From positions 124,001 to 188,000 of the forward strand of contig QPGO01000103.1 of the NCBI GenBank assembly GCA_008632985.1: a DNA stretch of 64,000 nt, in the 5' to 3' direction. Position numbers and translations under genes: made by a program. Positions 10,864 through 64,000 of the stretch are shown one piece after another; within the stretch, counting starts at the first letter, position 1; the number at the start of each line of letters is the position of its first letter. The notes below the pieces were generated by a model, which saw only the letters and a list, made by a program, of their open reading frames with translations, was not told the origin of the DNA and did not search any database. This DNA is from Psammoneis japonica. Lineage: Eukaryota.

Positions 10864-10960
10864 GTAGTGGAGCGATTACCAGTGAGCTACGTAGCTGTAC
10901 TGTAGGTAACGATTAGATAAAAAAAGTAGTCAGTGCTAGTACACTTCAAAAATGATTTTA

Positions 10961-41400: not shown

Positions 41401-44104
41401 CGACTTGGGCAACAGATCTGTCGACCCTAAAAGGCTTGGCTATGTTGGATGCGAATTAGTGGACCCTGCTGGAAACTTCTGGGAGGAGGAAAATGGAAAC
41501 TGGTTCAATGTCACTAAAGGATCAGTGCAAAGACACTATCCAGGAGAGAAAGCACCATTGCCAACGTCATCGCGGGTGCGACGCGACACACCTTTCAGAT
41601 GCAGTAACGAGCAAGACTTTCTTATTGCCATTCGACGATTAGGACGGTCTCGTGGGTCCAAGAGCTTTGGTAATGCGCGGGCAGTTCGTATGCTCTTCGA
41701 AAGAGTTCGAGACCGCCAGGCATCTCGCGTTACTGACGAAAGAGCTTATGGAAAGAGCCCTGACAAGTTTGAGTTTACACGGACTGATCTCCTTGGACCT
41801 GACGTCACACCAGAGTCGTTAAAAAAGAGCGACGCATGGCAGTCACTTGAGAAGATGGAAGGGCTGGTGCCAGTGAAGGAATCGGTAGAGGAGCTATTTA
41901 AGCTCGTGCTGCAGAATGTGAATCGGGAAAGACAGGGCAAACGCCCCCTTGAAGTTGCTTTGAATCGTCTCTTTTTAGGTATGAGTTGCGTCAGTGTCAG
42001 CTTCAATTTATGTTCCCTTCTTGAAAAATGCCAATCATTGTGCTCGCTCCTCTCCGCCTTCAGGTGGTCCAGGAACTGGGAAAACAACTGTCGCAAAGCT
42101 GTACGGTCAGATTCTTGCAGATCTTGGCCTATTGTCGAAAGGAGAAGTGGTATACAAATGCGCATCTGATTTCGTCGGTGACGTGCTGGGCGCTTCGGAG
42201 AAGACTACGAAGGGTATTATCCAGTCTGCCGAGGGTTGTGTCCTTGTCATTGACGAGGCTTATGCGCTTTATTCGGGCGGTGCTGCTCCGAATCGAAACA
42301 ATGACCCATACAAGACAGCTGTTATCGATACAATTGTTGAGCAGGTACAAGCTAAGCCGGGAGCTGATCTTGCAGTTGTGATGCTCGGCTATCAAGCAGA
42401 AATGGAAAACATGCTGGCAAAAACGAACCCCGGTCTCAAAAGAAGATTTCAACTGGAGAACGCATTCCACTTTCCCGACTTTGACGATTCTGCGCTCATT
42501 CGAATAATGATGGCCAAGGCGCGAGAGCAGCAGATCGGCTTGGATCTTCCTGTAGCAAAGCGAGCTATTCGTATCCTTGCCAAAGCACGTGCAAAGCCCA
42601 ACTTTGGGAATGCTGGTTCGGTTGATAACTTGCTCTCAAAGGGAATCACCCGAATGCAGCGCCGAGGAAACACTAGTGAGTTAACTGTTGAGGACTTTGA
42701 GTACACCGGCGACGAACATGACGAGGAATCGCTGAAGACGTTGTTTGACGATCTAATAGGTTGCAAGGAAGTTCGGGAAACAATGGATGAATTGCGTAAC
42801 ACGTCCTGTTTTCCAAGTCGCAGGGAAAGCCAGCAACTACTAACGTTAGTTTCAATTATCTATTCCTTGGCTCTCCGGGAACTGGAAAGACAACGGTCGC
42901 TCGCAGAATGGGCAAAATGTTTGAAGCTCTGGGATTGTTGCCTGATGACAGTATGAAGGAAATCAAGGCCAGTGACCTGTTGACCGGCTACGTGGGACAA
43001 GCTGGGCAAAAGACACGGGAGTTGCTCCGAGAAGCTTTGGGGGGAGTTCTTTTCATCGATGAGGCATACCAGTTGAATCCCAATCGAGGAGGCTCCTTCA
43101 TGACAGAAGCAGTCGATGAACTTGTCGGTGCACTCACAGATCAAGAGTTCAAAGGAAAGCTTTTGGTTATACTGGCCGGGTACGACCAGGACATGGAGGA
43201 GATGCTTTCCGTCAATCCTGGTTTGAAATCTCGATTCTCTGAGCGCGTCCATTTCCACGACTTTGACGCGAATGCGACAGCTGAATTGTTGTTGTTAGAA
43301 CTTGAAAAGAGAGAAATTCCCCTTGAGATCCATGACTTGAATGATTTGTGCAGGCTGTCGCAAAAGCTTGTGGACAGCGACGGCTTTGGAAATGGCCGTG
43401 ATGTTGTGACATGGGCTGATCGAACCTTTAAACAGGTTGCGAAAAGATACTCCCAAAAGGTTCCAGTGAAATCTTCCCGCCGTTCGAGAGTGCCGCTGTC
43501 GTCGTCTCTCAAGGACGTGACGGCAGCTCTCGAGTTCCTGCTTTCGTCGAGGAGGGTCAAGACAGGTGGACCAAGATGCAAATCCATCTCTCATTCTGAA
43601 CCTTCCAACATGGACACCGACGAGCTTTCCGCCAAGCCTCCGCCAAAGGTAGCAACGGTGCAGGCAGCGGACATTGCCGAGCAGGAAGATGAAGCAAGTG
43701 AGAACACCAATGAAGACGCATCTTTTGTGAATACATTCGACGACATCGACCCGCGGCTTCTCAGCAGCCTTCAAGACTTTATTGACCAAGAAGGGCTTGA
43801 TTCCAGCGAAGGCGTCCAACGTCTTTCGAATCTAGATCCATCCAGCACGGAGTTCAAGGATCTGCTCCAACGTCTGGTCGATGCGACAGGCATGGATCCA
43901 GACCAAGCTCGTGAACAGCTCATCAAGTGGCAGGAAGCTCAGAAAGATTTGAGAAAGACTATCGAGGCAACAAAGTCGGCTGTGGTTGGAGCTAGGCCAA
44001 TTTGGCGATGTGCTGTTTGTGGACAAGCCAACAAACCGTGGATTGTTTGTTACGTCGCGCCTTATATTGTTGGATATGAGCAAGTGACCTTAGGTGATGC
44101 GTAA
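35487..44104 (+). CDS. ZNFX1-like SF1 helicase with NF-X1 zinc fingers fused to three CbbX/SpoVK-type AAA+ ATPase domains
   Basis: CCHC knuckle CFRCGRSGHHAHEC; GGRHDND..DFR.I.I.PT; QGPPGTGKT, VEEAAE, IGDHKQLRP, TIDNYQGEE, NVLLSRAR; CGHPCTKQCH fingers; three AAA modules with GxPGTGKTT, (V/I)DEAY and FGN(A/G). Introns 37076..37158, 40726..40815, 41979..42063. In-frame TGA at 36666 and frameshift near 42800. Confidence 0.9.
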
Positions 44105-45383: not shown

Positions 45384-47076
45384 ATGATCGAGCCCTTCAT
45401 GACTAGTGTGAAGCAATGGCTTCCAGACTGGCCAGAATGGTACGTGAAATTTGGTTGGGTTCATACGTTCTTTGTGCGAGGGTATGTTGCCTCGTTTTTT
45501 GTGTGTTTGTGTTTTTCTCACGTTGAGCTTGCCGTTGAAACTATACAAGGGCTCTGGATGTACTGCTCATCATGACTGCGTGTTTGATTTTGACACTGGG
45601 AGTAACTTCCTTCTACACTCCAGAGGACGAAAAGGAGAACCAGACAACCTCGCCTGCAAAACAGACAAACGGCAAAAAGCCCGAAAAGAGCGTAAAGGAG
45701 CTGCATAAGGAGTTTGATTCGTTTCGTCGTCAGTACATTGTGGTGTATCTAGTGATTATGCTGGCTGATTGGATGCAGGGAACTCACATGTACACTCTGT
45801 ACTTGTCGTACAATGTCAATATTTCTGCACTCTTTCTTACTGGATTTCTAAGTGGAGCCTTGTTTGCGCCCATTCTTGGAGGTGCGGTTGACAAGTTTGG
45901 TCGGAAGCGTTCTTGTATTGTCTATTGTGTGTTGGAAATTATAATCAATACCATGGAACACTCCACCAACTTTACGATTTTGTTGATGGGCGAGTTCTAG
46001 GAGGTATCTCCACCAATCTGCTCTTTTCTGCCTTTGAAAGTTGGATGACCACCGAGCATCGTCGTCGTGGATTCCCAGAGGAGTGGCTATCTAGAACTTA
46101 CTCCGAGGTGAGTCATGAATTTTCCCTTGATGCGACTGGGCAAACAAAGCGTCTTACCTTTCATATATAACTTTGTAGTCGTCTATTGGGAACGGTGCCA
46201 TGGCTATATTGGCTGGAATTGTAGCGCAGGTGCTGGAGGACTTTTTTGGACACATTGGGCCATTCCAGGGTGCGATTGCGCTTACAGTCTTGGCGCTTGT
46301 ACTTGTTCTAGGTTGGGAAGAAAATTATGGAGAGGAACATCAAGGTGATCATGACAAATCGACTCTTGCGCAGCAGATTGTAGATGGGTGGAAGACTACA
46401 GTTTCAGATTCTCGCATATGGAGAATCGGTCTTACGCAAGCATTTAGCGAGGGTGCCATGTATACGGTACGCCTTTGACTTATGTTTCCTTTTTATCTTT
46501 GTTTGTTTCTTTAACTCACGCAACCCTTCCATGATGGTATTGGTAGTTTGTATTCATGTGGGTCCCAACACTTTTGTCCTTGGAGCCACCCGGTGGCGTT
46601 CCGACTGGGTGCGTGTTTTCAGCCATGATGATGGCCATCACAATGGGTGGTGTTCTGTTTCCCCCGTTGAATTCTTTCATGTCCTTGGCATCAAAAGCGA
46701 ACGCTTCAGAGCTTTCGGCAACCTTTGTCTACTTTTGGCAAGCGTCAGCATGGCCATTCCGGCATACTGCTTGAGTTCTGGCTCGGATGATTGCTTCTGG
46801 AGCATTCTTACTAGCTTTATGGTGATTGAGCTATGTGTTGGTCTCTTTATGCCAGTTGCTGGGACTCTTCGCTCCAAGTACATCCCCGACGCACTGCAGG
46901 GTGGAATTCTCAATATCTTTCGATTGCCGCTAAATGCCTTTGTGGTTACTGGGACCTACTTGACAGACGTTTGGGATTCCTCCTCCGTCTACGTGATGGT
47001 GAGCGCTTGGTTCATGGCCGCTGCTCTCCTGCAGGCATCCATGATATCCAGCAAAAAGTCTGTAAAGACCGACTGA
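45384..47076 (+). CDS. Molybdate-anion transporter (MOT2/MFSD5 family)
   Basis: ADWMQGTHMYTLY, GGISTNLLFSAFESW, FVFMWVP, LRSKYIPD...NIFRLPLN. Introns 46108..46178 and 46467..46546. Frameshifts near 45570, 45990 and 46730. Confidence 0.88.
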
Positions 47077-47317
47077 TTTCGGCTTGCCAGAAATCAACTT
47101 TTCTGCTACTCTATGTGTACTGGGTTTTATTTTTTTCTGCTTCTTAGAAGAATTATAGACGCGTGTTATTCATAATATTATCCTGCATTTCTTTCTCCGG
47201 GCTCTAAGTAGGCTGCTTTGCATGTTTCCGGGAGATAGTTGTTCGCTTCGGCAAGTCTTGCTCTATCTAGCAATGGATGAAACGGCCACCAACCCGATCG
47301 CATTCTCTAACACTGGG

Positions 47318-48002
47318 TTAAAACGGCCACCATCCTTTTTTACCGCGTGATTTCAAGGCCTGTAGCTCTTCCTCGGACTGCTTCAACGCCTCCTCTAGTT
47401 TTTTGTTGGCTTTGTCCAGTTGACCACGTCGTAGCCTCAGACTAACAAGCTCAGCGTCCTTGTCTCCGTTTAAGCCGTTAATGAAATCCAATTTTTCTTT
47501 TAGCATGATTCCTTTTTGTTCTTGGATCTTGATTTCAGTTGAATACTCATAATCTTGCTTCAGCTTCGCCGTGAGCTTTCTCATTTCATCCCGAAGAGTC
47601 GTGTCAAACTGCTTTTTCATGCGAGCTGTCTGCCCTTCGAACTCCTCATCCATTAGAAACAACTTCTCTTCCAAAGTCTTGATCTTTATCATCATTTCTT
47701 CTTCCGACTGGGTAATGAGTGATCAAAACAAAAAAATCGAGAAAGCGGTTGATAGTCAGTCTACACTAGTGTCTCACCACGACACTCATTTGTTCAATAA
47801 TATCGCCACTCACCTCCGACAGGGCTGACTGTGCATGCTGGAGATCTTTCTCCAACTGCTGAATCCGAGGTGCTTGCGACGCAACGCCAGCAGCTGCAGA
47901 CGCAACAGCTACGCCTAGGTCGAAAAGACCTGGATCCGGCGGGACCAGTGCATCAACGACGGCACACAACCAAAGCAAGGTCCCAGCAACAACAAGACGC
48001 AT
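47318..48002 (-). CDS. Signal-peptide-bearing coiled-coil protein
   Basis: MRLVVAGTLLWLCAVVDA signal. Intron 47708..47813 joins the two ORFs in frame. Ends KKGWWPF. Confidence 0.75.
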
Positions 48003-48135
48003 CTTCCTTTCACAGTTTGGCACTGATAACAAATCTCTATGGAGAATGGAGATAGTTAATTGGAGATTGAATCGTCGTCAGTAGTCCTAACACATTCACC
48101 ACAGGCCTCTCTACTGTAGAGGTTGGATGTTGAAG

Positions 48136-48156
48136 ATGATCAATGATCAATGATCA
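48136..48156. repeat. (ATGATCA)x3 tandem repeat
   Basis: Three exact 7-mers at the gene/transposon boundary. Confidence 0.85.
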
Positions 48157-48344
48157 ACATTCAACATGATACATGATGACAGATCACAGCTTTTTGGAGA
48201 GAGCCGTTGGTGGTTGGCGCGCGGCGGGCCTCGCTGAAATCCACGCGCGAAAACTGTTGCGACGCGCGTTGTACAGTACATACCGCACGTAGACCTCTAG
48301 TAGCACATGATGCGTTTTTAAAAATGTACGTATTATCCCTGCTT

Positions 48345-48658
48345 ATGCACACGAACCACCTGGTGGTCCGTGTGCATTTTTGGGTGCACACGAACCACCT
48401 GGTGGTTCGTGTGCACCCTACGCGAAATGCTGCGTAGATTTGTACCGAATAAATCTGAGTACTGTAAATCCGACGTAGGATCTACGTGTTTGTACCACTC
48501 AACACTAGCCACCGAGCCGGCAGTCTGTGCCGGCCGTCGTGAAAAATATTTTATGTCAAAGAAAGAGTTCGTCAGGGCCGGCGAAGAACACCCCACTACG
48601 ATGCGACCGGTATAAAATGTACGTAAATGCACAGGAACCAGCATGTGGTTCGTGTGCA
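48345..48658. repeat. Three related palindromes, consensus TGCACACGAACCA..TGGTTCGTGTGCA
   Basis: 48345..48377 (one mismatch), 48382..48418 (perfect 18-bp arms, 1-nt loop), 48628..48658 (13-bp arms, one mismatch). Confidence 0.9.
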
Positions 48659-48685
48659 AATTAGAGCTCGTGAAAAATAAGCAGG

Positions 48686-50785
48686 GTTATCTATCGCGCG
48701 CAACCGTTCGAGCGAAAAAAAGTTGAACGGCCCACGCGGGCGCAGAATTTTAATTGCGTGTATCGGAAGGCAAAATCTGCCTCCATGACGGTCATTTGCC
48801 GTCTCTTTCGCTTTTTTAGATGGTTTGAAGCCGATAAACCAAGCAATGTCGTTGGCGCTTGATCTGAAGAACACTGCAGGCACTTCAAATAAAAAAACAC
48901 ATCCACTGGAAACTTTTTAATCCATTCAACACACGCTTGAAAAGGGCGAATCGACATGGCACATTGCGCATCATGGTCGAACATTGCACTACTTGCCTTC
49001 GCCTCAATCGTATCTATTCGCCGTATATAACATGGACAAGGTGTGTAAAAATGTGTTTGGTTGTTGCAGTGAACCAACGACTTGCATTCCTGATTTTTGC
49101 ACAAGCAGGTGCCGAGCTGAACACATCATTTTCAACAGTTCCATCCCATGTTTACAGGCAAATGGCATGGCAAAGACCGTGTCAACTGTGATTTGCAATG
49201 CACGCTTGACGAATGCACAGAATCCAAAATGCGGAAGCATTGTGCGTCCCATTTGGACCGCATCACGTCGGTGTGGATGTTGGGTGGAACTTCAGCACAA
49301 CCACGACGACGTCGGGCGAGTCGTCGAGTGGCGGTGCGTCCAGAACAAAATGAATGAGGCGGCTGACGTTGGAGCCATGCCGGCAGTGGCTCAATGGTTG
49401 CTCGTTCTTGCATTGACAGAATGAACCCGAAGCCGCGGATGAACGTGCCGAGCAGGCGACAACGACATCTTGGAGGTGTGGTTGTGGGAATGTTTTCGAG
49501 TGTGCCTTCTGACGCTCCCACCTCGGGCATCTGAGATGAACCCGATTGAGCTGCTGTGGAATTGTCCGGTGGAGTGTCTTTTGTGTCAGTTTTTGGGGAG
49601 AGCACCGGGTGGCCCACCACGCAGCTGCCATCATTGGCTGCCTGCCGCCACTGTGACCACCAAGTCTAGCTGCAGTGGAGTCAACTCTGACATTGTCATC
49701 TGTGACCATCAATGTGTTGCATTCTTTCACCATTTTTAAAATGCACTCTAGCTAGAGTGCAGTTGCTGGTGGATGCGGGATGGCAGGATGAAAAGCCTGC
49801 TTCGGATTCTCCCAGCTTGCTTCTCCCATTGTCGAATTGTGATGGCATGCCATGTCACCAGCACCATCACGGCATGTGCTCCAGCCCGGAGGACTCTCTC
49901 TTCCTGCAANTCTCTTCCTGCAACGGTGGCAGAGGTGGGGGGGAATGGAATTGGGGGTGGCCTGCTGTGGGTTCGTTCCCGATTTTCACCCGCAGCACCA
50001 TTTCAACAGCACAGTCTGTCGCTGGCATCATCATGCAGGGCTCTCCAGCCTGCTGCAGAGGAAGGACTGGCTGTGCTGGAGGCGGTGGCGGCTGAGACGG
50101 CATGGCATGAGACTGACTGCCTCCCATGACAGAACTCAAAAAATTGGGGATGTTGCTGCAGCCGCTGGCGAGAGTTCACTGTTGCGTGTCCTTGCCAAAA
50201 AAGGAGTGACAAAACAAGTGTTGAGTTTTTGCAAGAAACAATGCAAGACACACAATCGATCAACAACTTGCAATGTGGGGCATGTTGTTTGAATTCAAAC
50301 CAGCGAGAAACCATGGGAACCACTTTGTTTGTGATGAGACAAAATTCCATTCAGCCACAGTTCTCTTCGTCATCGTGTTCGTCAAGGCGGCTCGATGACC
50401 AATTTACTCGGCGCATGACTTCTTGAAGAGATCCTTCGTCACTGCTGGCAACAGAGGAGTCTGCAGGGCTTTCGGTCAATCGCTGCACATTTGCAGCAGC
50501 TGGGATTGCACCACCACTGCAGCGATCCACGGAATCTTCTCAGTCAGATTTTTGACTCGATTCATCGTCCAACTCATCCTTTCTTGATGTCACATTGTTG
50601 CACTCGACAAGCGAAACAGGGTTGTGGCCATCAGCCCAGTGGAACGAGACATGCCGTGGCAAAAGATGGTAAATGACCGTCATGGGGGCAGATTTTGCCC
50701 TCAAGATTGGAAAAAAAAATTCTGCGCCCGCGTGTGGGCCCGCTCAAACTTTTTGTCGCTCGAGCGGTTGCGCGCGATTGACAAC
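48686..50785. mobile_element. ~2.1-kb element with ~120-bp imperfect terminal inverted repeats (degenerate DNA transposon, superfamily unknown)
   Basis: 48686..~48806 is the reverse complement of ~50661..50785 (shared ATCGCGCGCAACCG, CGCGGGCGCAGAATTTT, GGCAAAATCTGCC, CCATGACGGTCATTT). No target-site duplication identified. Confidence 0.8.
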
Positions 50786-51534
50786 ATCTACACAAATCTT
50801 GACATTGCCATGGTGCTGGTGGCAGAATTCTACGTTTGATCGTTGCATGCCAGCAACTCGCATTTGCATGTCTGTCAATTGGGGTGAAAACTGCTGACTG
50901 TGCTCTGCAGGCGGCCAGACAGCCAAATCGCAACTTTCAATTTATTTTCAATCTCTGTCAACAACAACAGGCAACATTTCATGAAAATGATTTCCAATGA
51001 TCTGTCAAGGCCTGACTTTGCTGGCAGGACCAGCAGAGAGCATCTGTCGATGATGCATCTCTGCCGGAGAGGGTCTGCTGCTGTGTGCAAACAAGACTGC
51101 TGCTGTCCTTGTCTCATCAGCTCTCCAAGGCCTGAGGATCAACAATTTTTGGAGCTGCTCTGCAGTGCAAAAATGCACAGAGGAGCCACAGAGAAAGGCT
51201 GTGCAGCCCAACTGCCACACCAGAGCTTCCCCTCTGAAAAAAAATGAAAGATGAGATGAGAGCAACAACCAAAGAAAATTGCCAAGGCAGCGCAATGTGT
51301 TTTTTCCCATCTGTTCTAAAACAGATGTTTGGTTTGGTTTTGCCTCTGCTGTGCAAAGATGCTGGAACAACAAGTGCACATTTGTGCCCCAGGGCAGCAA
51401 AGTGCCCTGCAGCCAATCTCTGGGCAGGGCACCTGGCATCGCAAAGATGTCAAGCATCAATGTGCATGTTTGGCGCCCACCACCGCCCGGCCATTGAGTG
51501 GTTGAGATGATGTGGCACTGATGGTGACTGACAA

Positions 51535-51864
51535 ATGCTCCTAAAACAAAGCCACAAAACTGCTTTTTGTGGACAAGCTCTGTTGCATCAAATGGAGGAC
51601 AAGTTCAGCAAGGGAGCAATCAAAGCCCTCAACAGGGAAGGACTTGATGATGATGATTTTAAAGAGGTGGAGCACATCTTTGAGATGAACAAGAAACAAA
51701 GAAACGAAAAATGTTGGCTCCAGTGGATGAAATGGGATGACCACATTGAAGTGCTTCATCACACCAATGAGTTCGAGAACCAGCACCATGTGAAGGAAGA
51801 TGCACTTGACACTTCAGTTGATGTTTTGCACAAGGATGTGACAGCAAACTTTGCAAAATCTTGA
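51535..51864 (+). mobile_element. PIF/Harbinger-like transposase N-terminal remnant
   Basis: 'MKWDDHIEVLHHTNEFENQHHVKEDALDTSVDVL' resembles the W..H...L....F...Y.M....F..LV..L segment of Harbinger transposases. The DDE core is not seen. Confidence 0.55.
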
Positions 51865-51929
51865 AGCTCCACTGAAAAAGTCAAGAAGCTGTTTGGGAAA
51901 GCACAGCAGTGGAAGGCCCCCAACTCTTG

Positions 51930-54110
51930 TTGCATTGCATCTTGTGCCAGCTGCTGTCCAATGTGCCAACTTGCTCTTCTGGTTTGTCATTGACTTCTCA
52001 TTTGTGGTGCTGACAAAAAATGCACTTGAAAGGGACGAGAGCTTGCTGTCTTCACACATGGAGGACCCAACTCCCCAATGCCAGGGGCGGGTGAAAAAGA
52101 GGGGGGCATGGGAGCAAAGCACTGCAGAAGGGCAGAGGTGCAAGCACTGAGCACATGATGGTCACCAACAAGGTGCTGCTGGCTTCCAAAAATGCAAAAA
52201 TGACTTCTTTGAGGTGCTGCACTGTGTGGTCATTGTTGTGCTGATTGCAGCTCATGAAGAAGCCCTTGGGTGGCTTGGCAGTGCTTGCCCAGACAATTGT
52301 GGCACAGAGGGGAGGAACAGCACACAATTGCTTTGCAACCTTGCAAACTTCTTTTTCCTGGATGGCAAAATGGCAGATTTAGAAGAGTCAACAAGGGAAA
52401 GCAAACAGAGGTTGCTCCAAGAACACACCTGGGCTGTTTTGCGCATGCTCTGCTGAAAAGAAAGTCAAAAAAAGTGCAAGCTTTTGTCGAGTGAAAGCAT
52501 GGTGAGTGGCGCTCCATCCAAAGCTGTGTGCAAAATGCAGTGCTCTCAGTGCTTGAAAAATTTCCTTTCACAACAACAAGACTGAGATGGGTCACCCAGC
52601 CCTGGGTCCTCTGCTGCTGTTGGTGTCCACAAAGCCATTGCTGTGCTCCAAAAGAAAAGTGGATTTGCCATTGTGGCAGCCACTGAGCCAAGAAATGAAC
52701 ATGGTCCAGTTGGTCACAGAGTGTTGCAGCTGAAGAAAACTTCTCATGGCATTGAGAGGAGGCTGTGGTGTGGCTGGCACAAAATGACATCAAAGTTGTG
52801 CAGAAATGTGCACATGCAACATGCAGCACATGAGAAAAGAATCCATGTTGCAGCACCAGCAGTGTGAGGTCCCACCTGGAGCTGGGGTGCATCTGGAAAG
52901 CATCAACTCCAGGCTTTGCTCATTGGTGTGAGGCTCAGAGTTGTTGGCAAATTCCTCTCCAGTTGTTCAGAAGGACCATGGTCTCCTGGCTCTGAGAGGG
53001 ATGGGAGGCAAGGCCTGCTCAGCGGCTTTTCTCCCCTCCCTGTCAATGCAGCTCCAGCCTCACAACAGTCCACCTTCTTTGCTCAGTTCATGAAAGGTCC
53101 AATCCTGGGAGCAGAGTCTGCTACAAACCTGCTCCAAGCTGCTGTGGGCTGCAGCTTGCACCATGATCAAGACTCCAGTGCAGTCACAGTCTCTCCCCCT
53201 TTCCTCACATTTGTGCCGCTCCAGAAACTGAGGCATCTGTGCACTCTTGGGTGAGATGCTGTGATGAGAGGTGCTGCAGCATTGCTTTGCACAGGCATGC
53301 AATGGCTTTGTTCAGAGATTCCAGCTGCCCCTGGGGCTGTGGACTGCTGCAGCACACAAGATGATGAGAGATGCATGTGGCTCTTCTCACCTTCCAGCCA
53401 TTGCATGCATCAATGGTCAATGGAGGCCTTTTGGGCGGGCATGCCTGCTGTCTGGCCAGTGGCTGTTGGACAAAACAGCAACACCAATGGTTCATCCTGG
53501 CCCAGCAGAGAGGCTGGCTCTGTCAGTGGATCTGCTCTGCGTGCAAGTTTGCCAGAAAGGCTGCAACATGTGGGGGCTGCACTGCTCAGGAGCAGCTCCA
53601 AGGAGATTGGGTCTTGCAAAAAACCACCCCAGTCTCTGATTCAATGCACTCACCAGCACCCTCCATCAAGTGCACACAGCCCCGGCAACCCACAGTGGTG
53701 TGGCCACATTTGTCAGTGACAGAAATGTTGTTCCAGGCCATCCTGGCAACACAGAATCTTGTCAAGCAGAAATTTCTAGCCTGCAAAGCCTTGTCAGCAC
53801 AGCAGTGGACATTTGTGAACACTGCCACATTGCTGAGGGTTCCATCAAGGTGGAGCCCTTCCTCTGTCCCCATCAATGCCCACCCAGTTGAGAGCATCTG
53901 CTCTGCCCAACACAAGCCCCAGAAGCCAAAAACTGCACCTCATTTCAAGGAGAGCCAAACAAAGCTCAATGTTTCACTTTTTTGTTGCTCAAGAACCAAC
54001 TCCACTCAAGGAGCATGCTTGCACTCTACAGTTGCAGCTCTCAGCCCCATTGAAAATGCCCCCAAGGAAGCATGCCAATTGAGGCTGTTTTGGGGATGCA
54101 GAGAGCTGAG
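51930..54110. repeat. Degenerate repeat, copy A
   Basis: ~51930..52070 and ~53410..54110 align by eye, in direct orientation, to ~55960..56990. Confidence 0.8.
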
Positions 54111-55959
54111 AGCTGCCTGCATCATGATCCAAAGATCAAGGCCATTGTCTGTCCAGTGCTCATGAGCCTGGTGTCAAGGAGAGGGCCAAGTGCACCCAGA
54201 AAGATTTCAACCAGTGTGTGGGGAAGCACCACAATGACTGCAAGTGCAGCAGCAACCAAGCCAACCAGCACCAGCCACATCTTCTGTTTTTTTGTTTGCT
54301 CTGCTCTCCTCAACTCTGAATGCAAGAATGATGACAAAACCAATGCTCCTGTCATCGGTGCTGTCAAACAGAGGAACACTGGCAACTCTGACAACTCATC
54401 ATCAATGGATGATGTTGTCACCCCCTTCACTGCAGGGTGTCTGGTGGGGCAACAGTCCGACATTGCATGCAAACAAGCACACAACATTCTTGCTGATGTT
54501 TTTCCTTTCTCACTGGATGGCATTTTGCTGGGTCGCCCGAGACCATTTTGGCCAATGGCACAAACTTGTTTCAGCATGATGTGCAACAATTTTCAGTGGA
54601 AAACGACTGGCATTGAAGACTTGTGGTTTGCATGCTTGTTGTCATTTCTGGCAATTTTTTGTCAGATTCAGTGCATTTTTTACACTGGATTGCACTGGAT
54701 CCAGTGCAAATTCTGTGCGCTTCAGAAACGTCTGCCAATGACCACATCATCAACTGTGTGAGCTGCTTCCATCCAGTGCCCACACCCATCAGTCCTCAAT
54801 GATTTCTTCTTCTCTCCTGCTGGCCAATCAAGTTCTTCACCTCATGTGGTGAAAGCACTGCCCCTGTTGTCATGGTGCTTGCAAGTGTTCATTTGGACAA
54901 ACCGTTGGCATCACCTGATGATCGTCCATCTGCTGTGCAGATCAGCATTGTTTCTGAACAAGATTCTGCATCAATTCCAAGTGAGAAAAATGTTTCTTCT
55001 GGCATCCTTCTCATCATGTCATCAAGGCTCCCCATTTTTTGTGCTTGCAAGTCCTGAGCCATGCCCCTTTTTCTGCTTGCCAGCTTGCCAAGCCTGCTGC
55101 TTGGAGCAGTGAACTGTTCACTTTCACCCCAGCACCTGCAAGCATGCAGCCCAGCCAGTCTTTGGCAAAGACAAGATCCGTCCTTGGAATCAAGGTTTTC
55201 TCCCAGATGTTGTGCTCATTTTGCATCCTCTTCTGAGCACAATTGTCCTTTGCTGTCATGGTGTGTGTGCTTTGCATTCATTCCAAAGGAAAACAACAAC
55301 CTTCTTCTTGTGCAACTTCATTTCAACCAGTTGTCTCCAGTGGGCACAACTGCAAAGTGGTGCCATGAAGTGCCAGCTGCAACAGCTTCTGCCACTGCGG
55401 GTTGGCCGGTGCAGGCATTGCTGGGCAAAGGTGCAACGGTGCTGCAAATTGGGTTTGAGTTGTTTTTTTTTGTTGCCACTGGTGGCACACCCTTCACTCT
55501 TGTTGAAAAAGTCTTTGAGAGTGTGGAGATTTGCATGCCAAGCACAACAAATGATGTGTTCCTTGCATCGCATTGCAACCAAAAACCCATGACAAAAGAG
55601 AAGATGCACAAATGATGCAGAAGGAGGACACAAATGGTGTCAAGAAGAACAAGATGTGCAACAAGGCTGACAGAAATGACATGACAAGATGGGAGGAGGG
55701 TGCAGGGCAGAATCAAAGTGAAAAAGAAGCAAAGGAAAGCTCTGCTTGGCTGCAGGCTAGAGCCACACTTCTGCAGGACTGGCGCCAGAGGAAAACCCAC
55801 AGTTGATTCACACAAGCTTTTGTGCAATGCCACGATGAACAAAAAAATTTCCTGGCAACAGCTGACAAACAAAGCTGGGACAGCATCCACAGCAAAGTTC
55901 AAGAAGCTTCTTGGAAGAGCACAGCTGTGGGGTCCCCCATCCCCTGCCCAATTCTTGTG

Positions 55960-56990
55960 GCATTGCATCATGTGTCAGCTGCTGTCCAATCTGCCAACTT
56001 GCTCTGGTTTGTCATTGACTTCTCATTTGGTGCTGACAAAAAATGTGCACGTGGAGTGGAGCTTGCTGTCTTGCTTGACACATGGACCCACCCACCCCAG
56101 CAATGTGATGCTGTGGCAAGAGGTGCTGCAATGTGTTTCTTTGCACAGCAGGTGTGCAACATCTGTGCTCTCTCAGAAACTCCAGCTGCCCCTGTGTTTG
56201 TGATGAGAGATGGGTGATGCTCTTCTCAGATGGGGCCAACATTGCACACATCAATGGTCAACAGAAACCTTGCAGCCTGTCTGTTGTCTGACCAGCAGCT
56301 GTTGGACACAACAGCAGCACCAATGATTCATCCTGACAGAGACACCCACTCTGCCAACAGATCTGCTCTGCACTCAAGTTTGCCAGAAAAGCTGCAACAC
56401 ATGGGGCTGCACTGCTCAGGAGCAGTTCTAAGGAGAAAAGGTCTTCCTGAAGAAGCGCTGCAGCCCCTGATTCATTGTGCTCACCAGCGCCCTCTGTCTT
56501 GTGCACACAGCCCAGGCAACCCACAATGGCATGGTGGTCATGGCTGTCAATGTCAGCTCTGCAAAGGACTCTTTCCTGGGTGCATCGACAGCAGGCACAA
56601 ATGTTGTCCCAGGCCATCCTGGCAACACAGAATTGTGTCAAGCAGAAATTGCCAGTCTGCGCAGTGCTGTCAGCACAGTGGAGGACATTTGTGAATGCTG
56701 TCACATCATGGAGGGTTCTGTCAAGGTGGAGCCCTTCCTCTGTCCCTGCCAATGCCTGCCCAATTGTGAGAGCACCTGCTCTGCCCAACACAAGCCCTGC
56801 AGCCAACCACATCTTTTTTTGAGGAGAGCCAAACAAAGCTCACTGTTTTACATCTTTTTTGCTCAAGCAACTCTGCTCAAGGAGCAAGCTTGTGCTCTGC
56901 AGCAGCAGCAGCTCTCAGCTCCACTGAAAATGCCCCCAGGGAGCGCGCCAATTGGGGCAGTTTTGGGGATGTGCGGAGAGCCAAGAACCA
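55960..56990. repeat. Degenerate repeat, copy B
   Basis: Shares CAGCTGCTGTCCAAT, CTGGTTTGTCATTGACTTCTCATTTG, GGGGCTGCACTGCTCAGGAGCAG and TCAAGGTGGAGCCCTTCCTCTGTCCC with copy A. Confidence 0.8.
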
Positions 56991-58334
56991 CCTGCACCAT
57001 TGGCATGAGTTTTGAATCACTTGCCATGTGCCAGCCACAGATTTTGACAAAGTCATGGAGGCTGAGCTCCTTGGCTGTCTGCCATTTCACATGGAGGAGC
57101 TCTGGGCACCCCACTCTTTGTCCTGCACCTGGGCTCATTTCACACATGACAAGCTGGCACCCAACCCCCAACCTCAATGCCACATGCTGTTGCCATTGCA
57201 GGGGCTGGCATCGTCATTGTCAACTTGTGCTTTTGGTGGTTTGTTGGCAAATGTCAGCTGCACATCCTGTCAGCCATGAGACATCCCACCCCACATGCTG
57301 ATGACTGCCCAGCTCGCGAGTCTTTTGACAACTTTCCTGCCCATCTTTGCAAGGTTGACACACCCATTGCTGACCCAAGTTGACCCGCTCTTCTGTCTGG
57401 CTTGTTCTTTTGTGCACACAGCCACCTTATGCTGGATTTGAACAAGAAATGTTTCTTGTTTGGACTTGCCCATGAGTGGGTTGAAGCCAACCCCAAGTCA
57501 GCACACTCATGGTTTGCCGTTGTGGGTGCCTGTTGTCATGCCTTTGTGGCCAATGTCACATGACACAAAGACACTTTTGTCATGCCACATGTCTTGATCC
57601 AAAAAGAAGTTGTTGGACATGTGGGTTGCCATTGGTTGTGCCTTTGCTGCCTGTGTGAATTGGATGAAGCCCTGGTGGCAAGCTTTTGTGCTGACACTGG
57701 CACATCACACCAGTTTGTTGCACATGGGAATGAGCACTGCCCATGCACCAATCACTTGGCATTGGTGAGCCACTCAAGGGGAGTTGATCAGTGTCTTGTT
57801 TTCACAAGTTTGGTGTGGCAGCCAGTGCGGGGAACAAAAAGGAATGCCCAGAAGCCATGCAAATTTTGACAAGTTTCTCTGCACTCCTCCAGTCAGAGCA
57901 ATTCCTCATCATTGCATGGTCCACAACAATGCCATGGCAGCATTGCCATTGCCAAACAACTTCCAAGTGCATTGACTTGATTCAAGATGCCTTTTGGGAA
58001 CCTGTGCTTCATTGAATCCAGGACAATGCCACCACAACATCAGAGTGCACGAAATGTTAAAAATGTGTAGATTTGCATGATGACAATTTGTCAAAACATT
58101 GCAAAACATTGTTGTCATGTGATGAAAGGCCAACCTCTGGTTGCAAGTTTGCCATGCCAACATTGCAATGACTTGTCAAGAATCATGTGTGCCATTTTTC
58201 ACTGTGTCCACATCACCACATCTGCCTCCACCTTGTTGCCACATGCCAATGCGTGATTGCATTTCCACACAATCCTTGGTTTGTCAATTTTTGCAAACAT
58301 TGTCCCAAACGAGAAAAGCATTTCATCGGTCAAG

Positions 58335-59633
58335 TCAATCCCTTGTCACATCTGCAGTGCAATGACCGAGTGCCATGTGAACTGTGTGCACATTTTCTTG
58401 CTGCAACTCTCTTAAACTGAGCTGACGATCATCATCGGACTCGTCTCCATCGGACTCGTCTCCTCCATTGTCTGTTTTTCCTTTTGCGCCTTCCTCCTGC
58501 TCATCGTCATTGCTGTTGTTGTCCCTGCTGCTCTCCACCATTGGGCTGTTCATTGCCTTCACCTTGTCCGTGTCGCCAGTCGGTGCTTTCTTTTTCTTCT
58601 TTTTTGCTTCTCCGGACTTCTTGCACTCGCTTTTCTTGATCTCCGCATGCCACTTTTCAAACTCCTTGCCCTCCTTGGAGTCTCTGTCTTTCGTCACCTC
58701 TTCGCATGAATCATTGAACTGATTGATTCCGTCGTCTCCCCAAGACACTCGTTGTTTCTTTGGCTTTGTTTGCCGAGGGGCAGGCCTTGTTTCTTTGGGC
58801 TCCATTTCCTCACCCAATTCTTCCACCGCCTCCTCCTTGTTCCTGTGTGCCCACACCTGCCAACAATTCTCCATGGCCAATGGCACCAAAGCTTCGTCAC
58901 CAACCGTAAACAACTGTGAGACCTGTGCATTCCCAGTTTTGATGGTGCTGCCCCATGCCTGCTTTTGCTTGGTTTGAGGCAGGATGTGATCACAGAACCA
59001 CTTGTGTGCCTGCTTGTTCCTTCGTTTGCCACCGGCGACAGTGTCCAGGCTGAACGGATCCCATGTCAGCACAAACGGGATGTCATTCTCTTCATTCTTG
59101 TCACGGCTTGACTTTTTCCTCTTTTTCCTCCTGTCTGCCGCCTTGAGTTTCTTTTCTTTTTCCTTTCCCTCTTCCTTGGTGACAACGCCCACATGGACAA
59201 AGCATCACCGTCATCTTCTTGTGAGACACACGCAACTCTCGAATCACACACATTGGTCACTCAGCTCACGTGCCATTGCCTCCGCCCCAACAGCCGAACA
59301 CACCGTGTTTCTGCGATTGTCAATTTGCCTTTTTGCCGCCTTTTTTGCCCATTCCTCCCAAGTTCCTGACCAATTTGAAGTGTCCATGTTGCCACCAGCA
59401 ATCTGTTTCTTGACAAACATTGAGGTGCTCCCATTGCTTGCCAATTCAGATGGACTGAGAAACTTCACCTGTGGAAAGAGATCATTTCTAGCCACCTTCT
59501 CTGCTTCTGATTTCAATGCACCATGCGCTGCCTGCGCACCTGTTCTCTTCAACACTGCCTGAAGTCTCAGGCTCATTGGCTTGACAGTCTCATTTTTCTT
59601 TCTCTTCTTTGCCGGTTGTGCTGGAGACGACAT
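58335..59633 (-). pseudogene. Transposon accessory ORF divergent from the Plavaka transposase
   Basis: 'DEALVPLAMENCWQVW...SWGDDGINQFNDSCEEVTKDR' with a Lys/Glu-rich tail and no Tyr. Split over two ORFs (59244..59744 and 58335..59192). Confidence 0.6.
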
Positions 59634-60087
59634 CTTGATCTTTTCATGGCAACAATGAGAGGAGCGGCACTGTTCGACAGTGCAACCATCGTTTGGGTCG
59701 TGTTGAGACAGCCAGGCACTCTGTTTTTCTCTGCAACATTGCACGAATTGTTGTCAGCAACATTGAAATTTGAAAATGTGTTCATGTGCAACAACGAACA
59801 GTCCAACTCACTTTTTGACATGGCTGTCATTGCGTTTCAACGGAGATGACATCCTGCATTTTGACAGCAAATAAAAAGCACAACATTCGTTGTTGATGCC
59901 AGATGAAAAATCAAAATGCAGGTGCGTCACACCTGTGAGAAACATCCCAATCTGGGGGACAATGTAATGTTTGCCAATTTCTCGCCATTTTTTGCGCGTT
60001 GTTCTTTTTTTCCCTTCTCATCCACAAGACAAGGACAATGAGCATGAGTCTTGATGAAGGCCCTGTCAACACATTGTCTGATTTACA

Positions 60088-63000
60088 ATGGACAGAAACC
60101 CTCTTCTCTGTCCCGGTTGTGGCCAAAGTTTTTTGCGAATGGCCTGCCATTGGAGACACTCACCGACGTGTCACTCAGTTGCCCAAGAGTTGCAAACCCA
60201 AGATCCAATCCCAGATCAAAGCGACATTCCTGCCACAACAGAGGGGCCACCCGAAGAAAGCGGTGGTTCTTCCTCTTTGTCCTCTGATGATGATGAATCC
60301 TGTCCCAGGCGATCAACTCGCAGCAGAGTCCCAAGATCTTCAACGAGTGATCCGAGCAGCAGCCCCTTGTTCCATTCCCCGGATGACGCGCCACACGGAA
60401 TGGACGACATGTCCTCCATTTCATCAAACCACAGCATGCAAGGAGTTGAACTTTTGGCAATGAATGAGTTGGATGTTGGCGGTGGTCAATCCTTTGCTGC
60501 AGTGTTGGACGTGACAACAGAGGAGGAAGAGGACATTGACGATGAGGATCAACATTTGGGGAGCAGGTGTGATGCTCCTGCAGAAGAGGCCTTGGCTTCT
60601 GCTCCTCTTTGACAAATCTTGACGGAGCTTGCGCAGAGTTGTGCAAGAAGCTCATGGACACATGTGGTGCTCCCCTGGAATTGTGCGATTGCATTGTTGA
60701 TTTCATTGAGAGGCACACTGGTGACAGCAACATCAAGCTTGGTGCAGTTCTGCCAAGGAGAAAAGAGTTGATGCGCACCTTAACCAAGCATTTCCCTCTT
60801 CCACCCAGCGAGTCTATTCCTGTCACTCTAGAAACCAAAAATTTCAAAACCGGTTTGCCAAAACGAGTGTCAGTGCCAAGATGGGATTTCACAAAGGTTT
60901 GGGAACAGTTTTTGCTCGATCCTCACCTGTGGTGCAGCAGAGAGAATGTGGCCAATCCAGACAATCAATTTGGGAAGCACAAAGCAAAGGGCCGGACAAC
61001 AAGTGCCTTTTGGCGGGTGAGTGGTGCAGGCGCAGTTACGAAGAACGGACAACTGACCCGGAGAAACAATTTCTCGAGTGCAATGTCATTTGCCTCGACA
61101 AGACTGGCAGGACACAAGGGATGGGATCATGTTGCGGAGAGCCAGTGATCATGACCTCTGCGCATGTTGCCTTCAACAAATGGTTGGACAAGAGTGTCTG
61201 GAAACCTCTTGGTTGTCTCCCGGATTTGGAAAAGATGTCGTCATCTGCGGCAAAGAATCTCTCAAACAATCGCAAGGCAGAGAAGGGACGCTCGTCAAGA
61301 GACTGCCACACTTGCTTGCGTGTCATTTTGGAGCCACTTTTGGAAGTCATGAGAAAAGGAGGCATGAAAACATGCGTGCAACGAGGGGATGAGATGCGAC
61401 ACCTCCGCGTGATCCTGCTGATCGTTCTCATCATAGGAGATGCAAAAAGCGGCGACTGTCTCGTCGGACGATGCGGAGGTCACAACTGTTGTCAACGTTG
61501 CTGTCGTTTTTGCCTGACTGGCTTCAACAAACTGGACGACCCATGGATTGAATGCAAGTTTGTCCAAGGACTGGATCTCCACCAAGTGCAAACCAAGGCC
61601 AACGATGACAACAGATCAGACCAAGAAAGGAAGCACTGGTTGGGCATCTTGCTTTGCCTCAAGCAACACAACGCACCTGCCAACTGTCTTTTTGAGGCAG
61701 ACTTTGGCGCACAACCACACGGCGTCACCCTTGCAACAGCAAGCGACATGATGCATCTCTTTGAAAACGGCACCTTGAAAAGGGCAATCAATTCATTTGT
61801 AGACAGCATGACACCTGTGGTCGCAAGTGAGGTGGACAGCACAGTGGAAAGGATTTTCAGCAATCACCGGTCAACTTGCAAAGCATCCTTTTTGCAAACA
61901 AACTTCAAAGGAGGAGCAACGTCGCTCACCTTCCTCAACTCTCACCACTGGGCTGGAATGGCTTTTGTTTTCTACCTTCTCCTGTCAACCAGCGAGGGAC
62001 GAAACGCACGTGAGTCATGCTTCCTTGACGAGGACGCAGACGAACCCATTGTTCCAGAGAATCGCAAGACACCCAAAGCAAACTTTGAGAGTTGCCACCA
62101 ACCTGGTGAGTGCTTGGACGACTCTGACGATGAAAGGTCGGAGGAGTCCAAAGAGGGTGACTGGGACGAAAATGAGGATGAGAAAGAGGAGAGTGAGGCT
62201 GAGGAAAGAGAAAAAATGCAAGGGAAAAAGACTCAACTGCAGCGTCCGGCAATTCATTCAATTGCTCGAGGACCTTCTTGTCTTCCACGCATGGCACAGG
62301 CTGGGTGATCCACCCATCACAAGCGTAACTCCCAGTTCATCTGTTCAGAAAATGAACAAGAAAATCCGTCTCCTCGTTGACCGGATGGTGCAATTCGTCC
62401 CGCGAACAGAAGGACACAGATGGAAGCTTCAAAAGCTTCATGAAACACTCCATCTCCCAGTGTTTCTTTGTCATCACCGACATGCGATGAACTTTGATGC
62501 AGGCTTGGGGGAATGTCTCTTGAAAGACTTTTTCAAGCTGCCGTCATCTGCCGCACAACAACGCAACCTCGACAGTTTTCTGAAGCAGGTCGTGTCACGT
62601 GTGGAGGACCAAATGAGGCTCAATGCCGCAATTTCAGCCAACAGTTGGATTTTGCCAACTGGGAAAAAGGAATCATCAAGAGTCAGGACGGACAATCACA
62701 TGCTGGGAGGAAGTGCGTTCACTCTCACCTACAACCAAGGGATTGGCGCTGTGACGTTTGAGTGGAACAGCGAGCATGCTCGTTGCCAAGTTCATCCTGT
62801 GTTGCAAACTTCATGTCGGAAAAGTGGGAGGATTGTGTTGGTGAAGATAGTGAAAATGCACACCTGACTTGTAAGACAGAGTTTTACAATGCAAACAGGA
62901 GGGACACGCACCGTGCGCACCCCGATTTCAAAAGCGAAGGACCATGGCATGACTTTGCCTGTGTGACCTTTGGCACACGAAAGGGCGATCAACAGTTTCC

Positions 63001-63360
63001 CTCCCGTTTGCCATGTTTCTTCGAACAGGAGTGCACAGGATCGATTTTTGCAGTTGTCCATCCAACTGCTTGTCAAGCTGACCAGAGAACTGCAAGGCAA
63101 CGGCATCAGCATGCAGACTTGGCCAGTTGCTGGCAGCTTGATCACAAACGAAACAACTGGCTGTCAATGCCTGAGAAGACTCAGTGCTCACCTGAGTTAC
63201 GTGTTGTCCCTGTCGAAGCAATTGGGGACAATGTTTTGGTTTATGAAGAATGTCCAGGAGCAGCAGAAGCGCAAGAAAAGGCCCCATTTGTTTGGGCCAC
63301 ACAGGACAGAAGGAAGTGTTGGTCAGATTTGTTTCTAAAATGGGATGCGCACATCAATCT
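60088..63360 (+). mobile_element. Plavaka (CMC/EnSpm-related) transposase pseudogene
   Basis: Motifs LDKT, PLGxLPDL, xHTCLRVILEPL, IIGDAKSGD, R.CR.C, DMMHLFE.G, WKLQKLHE.LHL, NFD...GE..LK.F.K.P and RAHP.F...GPWxDFA across ORFs 60609, 60881, 61827 and 62762. Several frameshifts. Confidence 0.82.
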
Positions 63361-63386
63361 GTCATTCACTCACAGTGTGTGCATTT

Positions 63387-64000
63387 TTAGAGCAATTGCT
63401 TCCTCACAGATTCCATGCAGTGTCCACTTGCACAGTCCATTTGGTCATCCTGCGCCATGAAATGTTCCCTGGCAGCCACAATCGCCTGCTGAAAGTCGGC
63501 GCTGTGGTCAGGCTGGTTGACAGCCACCAATTGTGCCTCGATTTGCAATGCCAACTGCAGGACCCTTTCTCTTGCCACGGCTTCTTCGTCCATGGCCCGG
63601 ATCGCGGTCCATGTCCCTCCCCGCATTTGATCTGTGCCTGGCCACAGATCATGCAAAGCTTGCCACTGTTGCTGCAAGGCAACGTCTTTCCTTCTCAAAT
63701 CGTCAGGGCCCCTGGAGCAACGTGATTGCAGCCTTCAGGACGCGCAGCGGCTGTGTTAGATGTCGCCTTCGAAGGAGTGGCACGGCATGGCGGTGGATGG
63801 ATTTGTTGATGCTGTTGATTGCAGATTGCTCCCTCTCCACTGCTCTGTTGGCGTCTGTGTCAGAATTTGCCCTGAGGCTTCTCAGAAGCAACGTCGAGTC
63901 ACAGCTGTGCAGCATGTGCAGCCTTGACTCTGATTTTTGATGTCCCGCAATGGAGATTGGGAGCCCCAATTCTTTTGCGTCAAATGCGTCACCGTGAAGA
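63387..64000 (-). pseudogene. Helical/coiled-coil ORF remnant convergent on the transposase, probably part of the same element
   Basis: ORFs 63387..63698 and 63703..63969 are Ala/Gln/Arg-rich, lack Tyr and share the TpA-free composition. Confidence 0.4.

Follow-up and report, generated by a model that had tools for sequence, protein, structure and literature searches.

We analysed a window of 64,000 nucleotides of diatom nuclear DNA (Psammoneis japonica, contig QPGO01000103.1, positions 124,001 to 188,000), in which the dinucleotide TpA is nearly absent from the last ~15 kb. This tract very probably records a real, locally targeted and strand-symmetric process that turned TpA into TpG or CpA. 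It is a near-saturated instance, in a second lineage of the SAR supergroup (stramenopiles, alveolates and Rhizaria) and in a family of DNA transposons, of a phenomenon described once before, in the chlorarachniophyte Bigelowiella natans. That description concerns A:T>G:C hypermutation, at TpA only, of integrated DNA of nucleocytoplasmic large DNA viruses (NCLDV) and virophages (Mettrop et al., bioRxiv 10.64898/2026.01.13.699255, dated 2026-04-14; below, the B. natans preprint). The tract and its three segments are the following, with dinucleotide abundances as observed/expected ratios (O/E):

49047..64000, unstranded: TpA-erased tract, 47 TpA observed against 540 expected; it reaches the window end, so its right end lies beyond.
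49047..50930, unstranded: segment A, TpA O/E 0.08, CpG O/E 0.70; of moderate repetition and without recognisable coding content.
50931..58250, unstranded: segment B, TpA O/E 0.03, CpG O/E 0.11, CpA/TpG O/E 1.86; contains diverged internal duplications.
58251..64000, unstranded: segment C, TpA O/E 0.06, CpG O/E 0.60; a high-copy repeat block.

The ratios were calculated for 49,050-50,930 (A), 50,931-58,250 (B) and 58,251-64,000 (C), with positions 1-49,000 as control. The expected number of TpA in the tract follows from the control density of 36.1 per kb, and the deficit has a Poisson P of ~3e-166. The mean TpA-free gap is 313 nt in the tract and 27.6 nt in the control. In 1-kb bins, TpA O/E ranges from 0.39 to 0.78 across 1-49,000 with one exception (0.22), falls to 0.20 in the edge bin 49,001-50,000 and stays at 0.02-0.09 across 50,001-64,000. 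The strand-symmetrised control value is 0.54, and the three segments have correspondingly more CpA/TpG (O/E 1.62 in A and 1.52 in C, next to the value for B listed above) than the control (1.15). The G+C content of the tract is 0.50-0.52, unchanged despite a loss of CpG. A first-pass annotation of this DNA, made from the letters alone, had reported that TpA is almost missing here, with roughly a dozen left in 51,300..58,400, and that TpG and CpA are abundant, and had proposed windowed dinucleotide ratios as a check. The ratios confirm both the depletion and the rise, and the listed positions give 14 TpA in that interval.

The left edge of the tract is abrupt. Normally spaced TpA end at 49,046, and the next ones lie at 49,153 and 49,667, which places the drop within ~100 bp. 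We scanned the window in 500-bp windows with a step of 100, using the cut-offs of the B. natans preprint, which were applied there to 1-kb windows. Inside the tract 120 of 145 windows qualified. Only one wholly upstream window did (25,401), and the other three early ones (48,801, 48,901 and 49,001) span the edge. The adjacent genes, as had been claimed, are thus free of the signature.

The erasure has strong consequences for the apparent coding content. In six frames the tract has 670 TGA, 34 TAA and 32 TAG stops (TGA in 670 of 736), compared with 1857, 771 and 774 in the control, and tyrosine makes up 0.09% of translated residues instead of 2.04%. Cysteine (5.96 vs 3.55%), histidine (4.72 vs 3.25%) and glutamine (5.90 vs 3.93%) are all enriched, and open reading frames (ORFs) of at least 100 aa are denser, with 4.28 per kb against 2.53 per kb. 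The dense, Cys/His/Gln-rich and Tyr-free ORFs ending almost solely in TGA that the first reading had noticed are therefore a general property of the tract. Such TpA-erased DNA misleads gene finders, as stop-poor sequence produces long spurious ORFs of this composition, and it also misleads transposon annotation.

To establish the direction of change, we relied on a transposase gene in segment C and on an old duplication in segment B:

60585..63361, plus strand: Plavaka/KDZ-type DNA-transposase pseudogene in four frame pieces (frames 3, 2, 3, 2), delimited by local tblastn with 150 relatives.
53362..54125, plus strand: paralog copy 1 in segment B, 74% identical to 56,201-57,000.
56201..57000, plus strand: paralog copy 2 in segment B, the partner of 53,362-54,125.
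51868..52062, plus strand: a further piece of the old duplication in B, 77% identical to 55,886-56,086.

The largest piece of the transposase had 848 phmmer matches with a best E of 3e-90. Its ORF scored 23.8 bits against the Pfam family Plavaka (PF18759), below the cut-off of 26.3, and four of six tested relatives passed this cut-off with 28.4-40.4 bits. The gene thus seems to be a distant Plavaka/KDZ member, degraded here. Looking for close protein copies from the same species, we obtained only two matches at E <=1e-20, both from other organisms. The composition of the ORF departs from that of its relatives in the same way as the tract departs from the control, with 0.57% Tyr instead of 2.86% and 5.3% Cys instead of 2.3%. 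At 12 columns dominated by Tyr among up to 150 relatives, the window has a TGY codon (Y, pyrimidine) in four, CAY in three, TAC in one and another codon in four. Other conserved columns are largely kept (Cys 6 of 7, His 9 of 9, Trp 11 of 12). Five of the 20 conserved Arg columns are changed, three of them to Q, Q and W, which are the products of CpG>CpA/TpG. A bias of Cys over His, or strand asymmetry, suspected in the first ORF piece was dropped, as the whole gene has four TGY and three CAY and the raw TG and CA counts are even.

The two paralogs in segment B tell a similar story. CA<>TG is the commonest dinucleotide difference between them (26), and in the trimmed core there are 21 such swaps against 122 shared TG/CA; the copies also differ by 73 transversions. 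Swaps of this kind are expected when, in each copy, an ancestral TA (or CG) is turned randomly into either TG or CA, which argues for independent conversion. Adjacent TG>CA or CA>TG changes were also found among other genomic copies at 49,278/9, 49,713-6 and 50,177/8, in segment A, where CpG is largely intact. These copies were recovered as Logan contigs of a public run (X1), in which the differences fall on 587 transition places and 152 transversion places. The conversions seen in the separate copies thus arose independently.

On these grounds, i.e. Tyr>Cys/His at conserved columns, TG/CA swaps between paralogs and normal TpA in the relatives of the transposase (below), the depletion results from A:T>G:C transitions at TpA (TA>TG/CA) and is not native composition. 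This was also the proposal of the first-pass annotation, which had further suggested a polarised substitution spectrum of copies against their family consensus. That check is answered in part. Transitions dominate and TG/CA swaps are present, and the comparison behind them is one of copies with relatives and paralogs.

A source that natively avoids TpA, or RNA edited by ADAR and re-integrated, would be another way to obtain such a sequence, and ADAR indeed prefers an A preceded by U (cited in the B. natans preprint). We regard this explanation as extremely improbable. All 14 metagenomic loci encoding transposase relatives have a TpA O/E of 0.50-0.75, so the family is not natively TpA-poor, and the Tyr content of the relatives is normal. 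The differences between copies are swaps, which dates the changes to after integration, and the one element that could be identified is a DNA transposon. Editing of one strand should also leave far more TG than CA on the sense strand, whereas the transposase ORF has 129 TG and 153 CA. On the plus strand the counts are 203/176 in A, 849/852 in B and 543/550 in C, and this near-equality excludes editing of a single RNA strand.

The process is narrow in its target. ApA, ApT, ApC and ApG stay within ~0.15 of their control O/E, and the changes are confined to TpA. The TC/GA ratios (1.04 in A, 0.90 in B and 1.14 in C, compared with 1.16-1.17 in the control) differ little and inconsistently. A simulation with only TA>TG/CA and CG>TG/CA acting on host-like sequence returned CpA/TpG O/E of 1.57 and 1.85, close to the values in C (1.52) and B (1.86), respectively.

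The survivors indicate a preference for the flanking base. With host-like contexts as the expectation, none of 158.5 expected TpA remain in RTAY (R, purine), 28 of 293.6 (9.5%) where TAY occurs on one strand, and 19 of 89 (21%) in YTAR, a grading with a chi-square P of 4e-7. By the 3' base, survival is 0.025 for TAT, 0.063 for TAC, 0.135 for TAG and 0.144 for TAA. The changes thus favour TAY over TAR. Concerning its timing, C<>T differences between the B paralogs are found at 2.4% before A and 5.4% before G, compared with 12% before C and 9.6% before T. So few differences before A and G mean that new TpA and CpG do not accumulate, and the process was therefore active late or persistently, i.e. 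after or throughout the divergence of the paralogs.

A second loss, not flagged in the first-pass annotation, is superimposed on the first in segment B, where CpG is also nearly gone compared with a control O/E of 1.00. The matching gain of CpA/TpG in B follows the pattern of methylation-driven CpG decay, and in this older core ordinary CpG>TpG/CpA decay, presumably by deamination of 5-methylcytosine (5mC), seems to have been added to the TpA erasure. The limits of the CpG erasure are sharp, near 50,930 and 58,250, inside the larger TpA-erased tract. Decay of methylated transposons can account for the CpG O/E of 0.11 and for part of the TpG/CpA excess in B; it is unable to remove TpA. Of the TpA in A and C, ~90% is lost, against only 30-40% of the CpG, which means that the TpA loss is no by-product of 5mC deamination. 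In segment C ~10% of TpA is left against 60-77% of CpG, depending on the baseline used, and we infer that TpA was lost ~4-9-fold faster per site than CpG in the same DNA.

TA is the hottest WA site (W, A or T) of the error-prone polymerase Pol eta. The first-pass annotation had named, as one candidate, Pol eta-type error-prone repair triggered by T:G mismatches and producing WA>WG. In the form considered here, the mismatches would stem from 5mC deamination in methylated repeats and would recruit error-prone patch repair. The losses of CpG and TpA do coincide in segment B, as this idea would have it. However, ApA is not depleted (O/E 1.20-1.28 vs 1.16 in the control), ApG is not raised (0.87-1.10 vs 1.00), and in A and C the supposed trigger is rarer than its by-product, as TpA loss outruns CpG loss. 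For the viral regions of B. natans, moreover, the preprint reports 231 mutations, of which all but one are transitions A>G or T>C at TpA, and no accompanying rise in C>T. We consider the candidate very improbable and did not retain it.

Another trivial explanation would be that the DNA contains TA and that a modified base at TpA was misread, so that the assembly has TG or CA instead. Misreads on both strands of the palindromic site would likewise produce apparent Tyr>Cys/His changes and TG/CA "swaps", and the sole run found (X1) may be the assembly's own data. Strand-specific misreads should nevertheless create two k-mer paths per site. Instead, three contigs of run X1 (926, 2769 and 3235 bp; depth 32-33.5) match segment B with 0 differences, those of 2.8-3.2 kb among them, and several bins of B carry exactly the depth of one contig, i.e. 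no alternative branches. A column-wise consensus of discordant strands would leave CG and TA chimeras, and there are nearly none in B. The signal is graded by the flanking base and coexists with frameshifts and with the 73 transversions between the paralogs. According to the preprint, the same signature also arose de novo in some, though not all, of the mutation-accumulation lines of B. natans, which were sequenced with Illumina. An artefact is hence hardly probable. Of the idea that reads might restore TpA, it can be said that the contigs of X1 keep the sequence exactly, though as a run that may not be independent of the assembly.

The assembly has one join close to the edge:

49910, unstranded: one N, with the direct repeat TCTCTTCCTGCAA on either side.

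This N has the look of a join in the scaffold, made where the ends of two contigs overlap, and lies 860 bp into the tract. As the tract starts 860 bp ahead of the join, its edge lies inside a contig.

The depth of run X1 contigs matching at >=80% identity shows how repeated the region is (4,521 contigs match the 18 kb of 46,000-64,000), although summed contig depth is not copy number. Over the flanking genes the summed depth is 48-57, in segment A 380-575 and in segment C 4,900-23,000, from which we read C as a very high-copy family. Segment B has single-copy depth (32-41) in 7 of 12 depth bins and is an old, mostly single-copy, degenerate core with few repeated inserts. The k-mer depth of run X1 is also lower over segment B (32-33.5 at 50,705-58,065) than over the neighbouring genes (47.6-57.1 at 46,000-48,337), possibly owing to hemizygosity, haplotype divergence or coverage bias.

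The edge itself coincides with no recognisable repeat end, and repeats extend across it. One is a paralogous contig of 1,816 bp (48,715-49,583; 133 differences; run X1), and the other is an inverted repeat with one arm on each side:

48686..48807, unstranded: inverted repeat, left arm (122 nt), on the TpA-normal side; 4 TpA.
50661..50785, unstranded: inverted repeat, right arm, with 81% identity to the left one; within the erased tract, 1 TpA.

The stretch 47,803-49,004 has a summed depth of 579-1,480 in run X1, yet its TpA is normal. Taken together, the edge-crossing repeats, this TpA-normal stretch of high depth and the mostly single-copy segment B mean that repetition is neither clearly necessary nor sufficient. 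The terms "repeat-restricted" and "RIP-like" (RIP, repeat-induced point mutation), under which the tract was first annotated, are for the same reasons not established.

A truly RIP-like process, in which duplicated DNA is recognised, perhaps at sexual reproduction, and mutated at TpA with chromatin as a secondary matter, has some points in its favour. Segment C is a member of a family of very high copy number, A and B contain repeated parts, the copies underwent conversion separately once duplicated, and the tract is a mosaic of segments with differing histories, all of which are marked. We nevertheless think it unlikely. The most depleted segment is B, with its single-copy bins (it may have been repeated long ago), the high-depth stretch just outside escaped (with the reservation on depth and copy number given above), the edge at 49,046 is crossed both by the 1,816-bp contig and by the pair of inverted-repeat arms, and the main target in B. 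natans is, as the preprint has it, a single-copy viral insert of 186 kb. The positions of edge and repeats instead make it somewhat more probable than not that targeting is chromatin-directed, domain by domain, rather than homology-directed. Just outside the tract, a 31-nt palindromic motif, TGCACACGAACCACCTGGTGGTYCGTGTGCA, occurs three times in 48,346-48,658, in surroundings of high depth and normal TpA. It is possibly a repeat that escaped the process, either a hairpin or one resembling miniature inverted-repeat transposable elements.

As an explanation of the whole, we slightly favour a silenced, transposon-rich block in which TpA was converted by a targeted, chromatin-directed, adenine-deaminating defence. 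The tract is a presumably silenced block of a diatom nuclear chromosome, holding the frameshifted Plavaka/KDZ transposase of a high-copy family, further unnamed repeats and the older degenerate core. A locally targeted, strand-symmetric process has very probably turned its TpA into TpG or CpA. The adenine of 5'-TA-3' would be deaminated in DNA to inosine, to be read as G at the next replication, and the deamination would be directed by the chromatin or silencing state and not by duplication as such. As a defence, it would destroy coding capacity through the loss of Tyr codons and the scrambling of Ile/Leu/Asn-type codons.

Adenine deamination is our best guess at the chemistry, though a tentative one that we hold at somewhat less than even confidence. 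In ADAR editing, and in the U33-A34 substrate of TadA/ADAT, the target A typically follows a U or T, and the anticodon context of eukaryotic ADAT has G, A or C after A34. A TadA-like DNA adenine deaminase was already a candidate in the first-pass annotation. A deaminase-type mechanism still leads, and one is also proposed in the B. natans preprint; the enzyme itself is a putative one.

Thymine chemistry comes second in our ranking. Here, a TET/JBP-type dioxygenase would oxidise the T in TpA of silenced DNA to 5-hydroxymethyluracil (5hmU) or 5-formyluracil (5fU), which would mispair with G and give T>C. In earlier studies the 5hmU of dinoflagellates was assigned preferentially to TpA and TpC, fungal KDZ transposons travel with TET/JBP genes, and the mutagenicity of 5hmU is modest. 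The signature is strand-symmetric, and at a palindromic TpA, A>G and T>C look alike in the sequence. Dinoflagellates, which also belong to SAR, make 5hmU post-replicatively by a TET/JBP homologue, a mark linked to the silencing of transposons (PMC11572971). This alternative is rather improbable in our view, since no TET/JBP domain was found among the scanned tract ORFs with Pfam, there is no TpC effect in the TC/GA ratios, and a TpA preference is not mentioned in the parts of the dinoflagellate literature consulted, including PMC11572971.

Several points weigh against the explanation that we favour. Five of the 12 Tyr-dominant columns are unchanged or are not explained by a single TA transition (TTC in two, GAA in one, AGG in one, and the kept TAC). 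As a comparison of polarity, the inverted-repeat arms, which are short and diverged, have one site that fits TA>TG and one that is opposite to expectation, with TG in the TpA-normal arm and TA in the erased one; the rest are ambiguous. The context test presumes host-like ancestral contexts, and some of the surviving TpA may be new C>T mutations at CpA. In segment B the GpC O/E is 1.34, compared with 1.11 from the two-process simulation, and this excess is unaccounted for. Segments A and B are without recognisable transposon genes, and "transposon-rich" is demonstrated only in C and, on the basis of depth, in parts of A and of B. The reads are no independent check if run X1 is the assembly's own sample. 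The preference for TAT over TAC does not simply mirror the tRNA substrate of ADAT. Finally, the deaminase, the inosine and the chromatin targeting are all read from the sequence footprint.

The closest known system is that of B. natans. In its mutation-accumulation lines, two viral regions integrated in the genome received 231 of 302 nuclear mutations, at a rate of ~6e-7 per site and generation, which is elevated ~1000-fold (Mettrop et al.). Of these, 230 were A>G or T>C, all at TpA, and the process was active in some lines only (11 of 15). The B. natans genome also contains 324 TpA-poor coding sequences (CDS), among which DDE-endonuclease and reverse-transcriptase domains are over-represented, and 124 clusters of windows that are poor in TpA and rich in CpA+TpG, and the authors propose an ADAT2-like DNA adenine deaminase. 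As far as the preprint describes it, the two cases share A>G/T>C transitions only at TpA, giving TpG or CpA on either strand, in discrete tracts of foreign or mobile DNA. They also share a long-term footprint in which TpA is scarce and CpA+TpG abundant, seen there in clustered windows and transposon-derived CDS, and a proposed adenine deaminase.

The differences concern the host, the target and the degree. B. natans belongs to Rhizaria and the diatom to Stramenopila; de novo mutations were measured in the former, whereas the tract shows an end-state footprint. The NCLDV insert has a rho TpA of 0.45, and the values of 0.03-0.08 here are far nearer saturation. The inserts in B. natans are viral, while here they are a Plavaka/KDZ DNA-transposon family and other repeats. 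The preference for a 3' pyrimidine and the co-occurring erasure of CpG are found here, and the main text of the preprint does not mention CpG, flanking context or diatoms. In our full-text literature searches, no TpA-erasing hypermutation was described in diatoms, and the signature was described only in the B. natans preprint. As far as these searches reach, the first-pass statement that no pathway of this kind is characterised in diatoms therefore stands, with the qualification that the phenomenon is already in print for a chlorarachniophyte.

Other defences resemble the process in part. Fungal RIP is duplication-dependent, is triggered in the sexual phase and involves a RID-type methyltransferase. 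Its outcome is similar, as dense, strand-symmetric, dinucleotide-specific transitions ruin mobile elements and spare neighbouring genes, with copies hit independently. Its polarity is not matched: RIP is C>T, mainly CpA>TpA, and raises TpA and A+T, whereas here TpA is destroyed and G+C stays at ~0.50. In animals, APOBEC3 (on retroelement DNA) and ADAR (on repeat dsRNA) also turn base deamination against selfish or foreign nucleic acid, and DNA is edited by the ADAT2 of amphioxus and by engineered TadA base editors (partly as cited in the B. natans preprint). APOBEC, however, gives C>T/G>A, and the RNA edits of ADAR would, once re-integrated, leave a strand-asymmetric signature. The dinoflagellate 5hmU made by TET/JBP is likewise a chemical mark on transposon thymine in a SAR lineage and could in principle give T>C. 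It is nevertheless an epigenetic mark, which the texts searched (PMC11572971 among them) do not show to be mutagenic or TpA-specific, and no TET/JBP domain was found in the scanned tract ORFs.

The diatom tract means that TpA-only hypermutation is not peculiar to one species or to viral inserts and reaches DNA transposons in an ecologically weighty lineage. A high-copy family with many independently mutated copies is a richer substrate for studying the target context (TAY), the edges of tracts and the timing relative to CpG decay. The hunt for the enzyme is also narrowed, because with Pol eta-type repair and RNA editing disfavoured, a strand-symmetric DNA-level editor of A or T is left. It is possible, though we would not put it at even chances, that diatoms and chlorarachniophytes have in common an ancient enzymatic defence. 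Such a defence would recognise silenced mobile or foreign DNA by its chromatin state and edit 5'-TA-3' on both strands (A>I, or T to an oxidised T), at roughly ten times the pace of methyl-CpG decay, until nearly every TpA, and with it the Tyr, TAA and TAG codons, is gone. If true, this would be a functional analogue of fungal RIP with reverse polarity across the SAR supergroup, and its enzyme would be the first chromatin-targeted editor of adenine (or thymine) in DNA known from nature. To our knowledge, no natural chromatin-targeted DNA adenine deaminase has been characterised. A natural enzyme of such activity would be of interest for base-editing technology and for the evolution of genome defence.

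Little else in the tract could be named. In the scan of 55 tract ORFs, segments A and B had no credible Pfam match and the only credible one was the weak Plavaka match in C; matches to DUF4227 (E 0.0064) and Motilin_ghrelin (E 0.0082) were discounted, as they had no qualifying stretch. Rfam gave 0 matches over 47,000-64,000. One further open frame lies in the stretch of highest depth:

58338..59204, minus strand: Tyr-free open frame of 289 aa, no relatives, no Pfam match.

For this ORF a search of 5.8 billion proteins (158-506 residues) returned no relatives, and the Atlas gave no meaningful neighbour (best 0.79). Within the transposase region, one contig of run X1 (depth 889) links 60,071 to 63,079 and omits 3,007 bases, which suggests abundant, internally deleted, non-autonomous Plavaka/KDZ derivatives.

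Upstream of the tract, the first 48 kb contain long, intron-poor ORFs with a myosin head, IMP dehydrogenase (IMPDH), 2-oxoacid dehydrogenase E2, an Upf1-like helicase, AAA ATPases and others. The IMPDH ORF is 81-84% identical to proteins labelled in their sources as diatom (Coscinodiscus, Attheya, Ditylum and others). The one control bin with low TpA (43,001-44,000) lies within an AAA-ATPase ORF and was rejected as part of the erasure, its TpG and CpA being normal (1.13/1.18). The sole wholly upstream 500-bp window that passes both cut-offs (25,401-25,900; rho TpA 0.39, rho CpA/TpG 1.54) sits just ahead of the ORF 25,727-26,893, which has no Pfam match. At 14,215-21,101 on the plus strand, the myosin-head ORF (1,067 aa) and an ORF with six CBS domains and PB1 (1,231 aa) share a few bases, and the two may be one gene of unusual myosin-CBS-PB1 architecture, broken by an intron or a frameshift. 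Similarly, at 37,064-44,104 on the plus strand, the Upf1-like helicase ORF (AAA_11/AAA_12) is followed by three successive AAA+ ORFs with AAA_lid_6, in overlapping frames, and all four may form a single large multi-ATPase gene.

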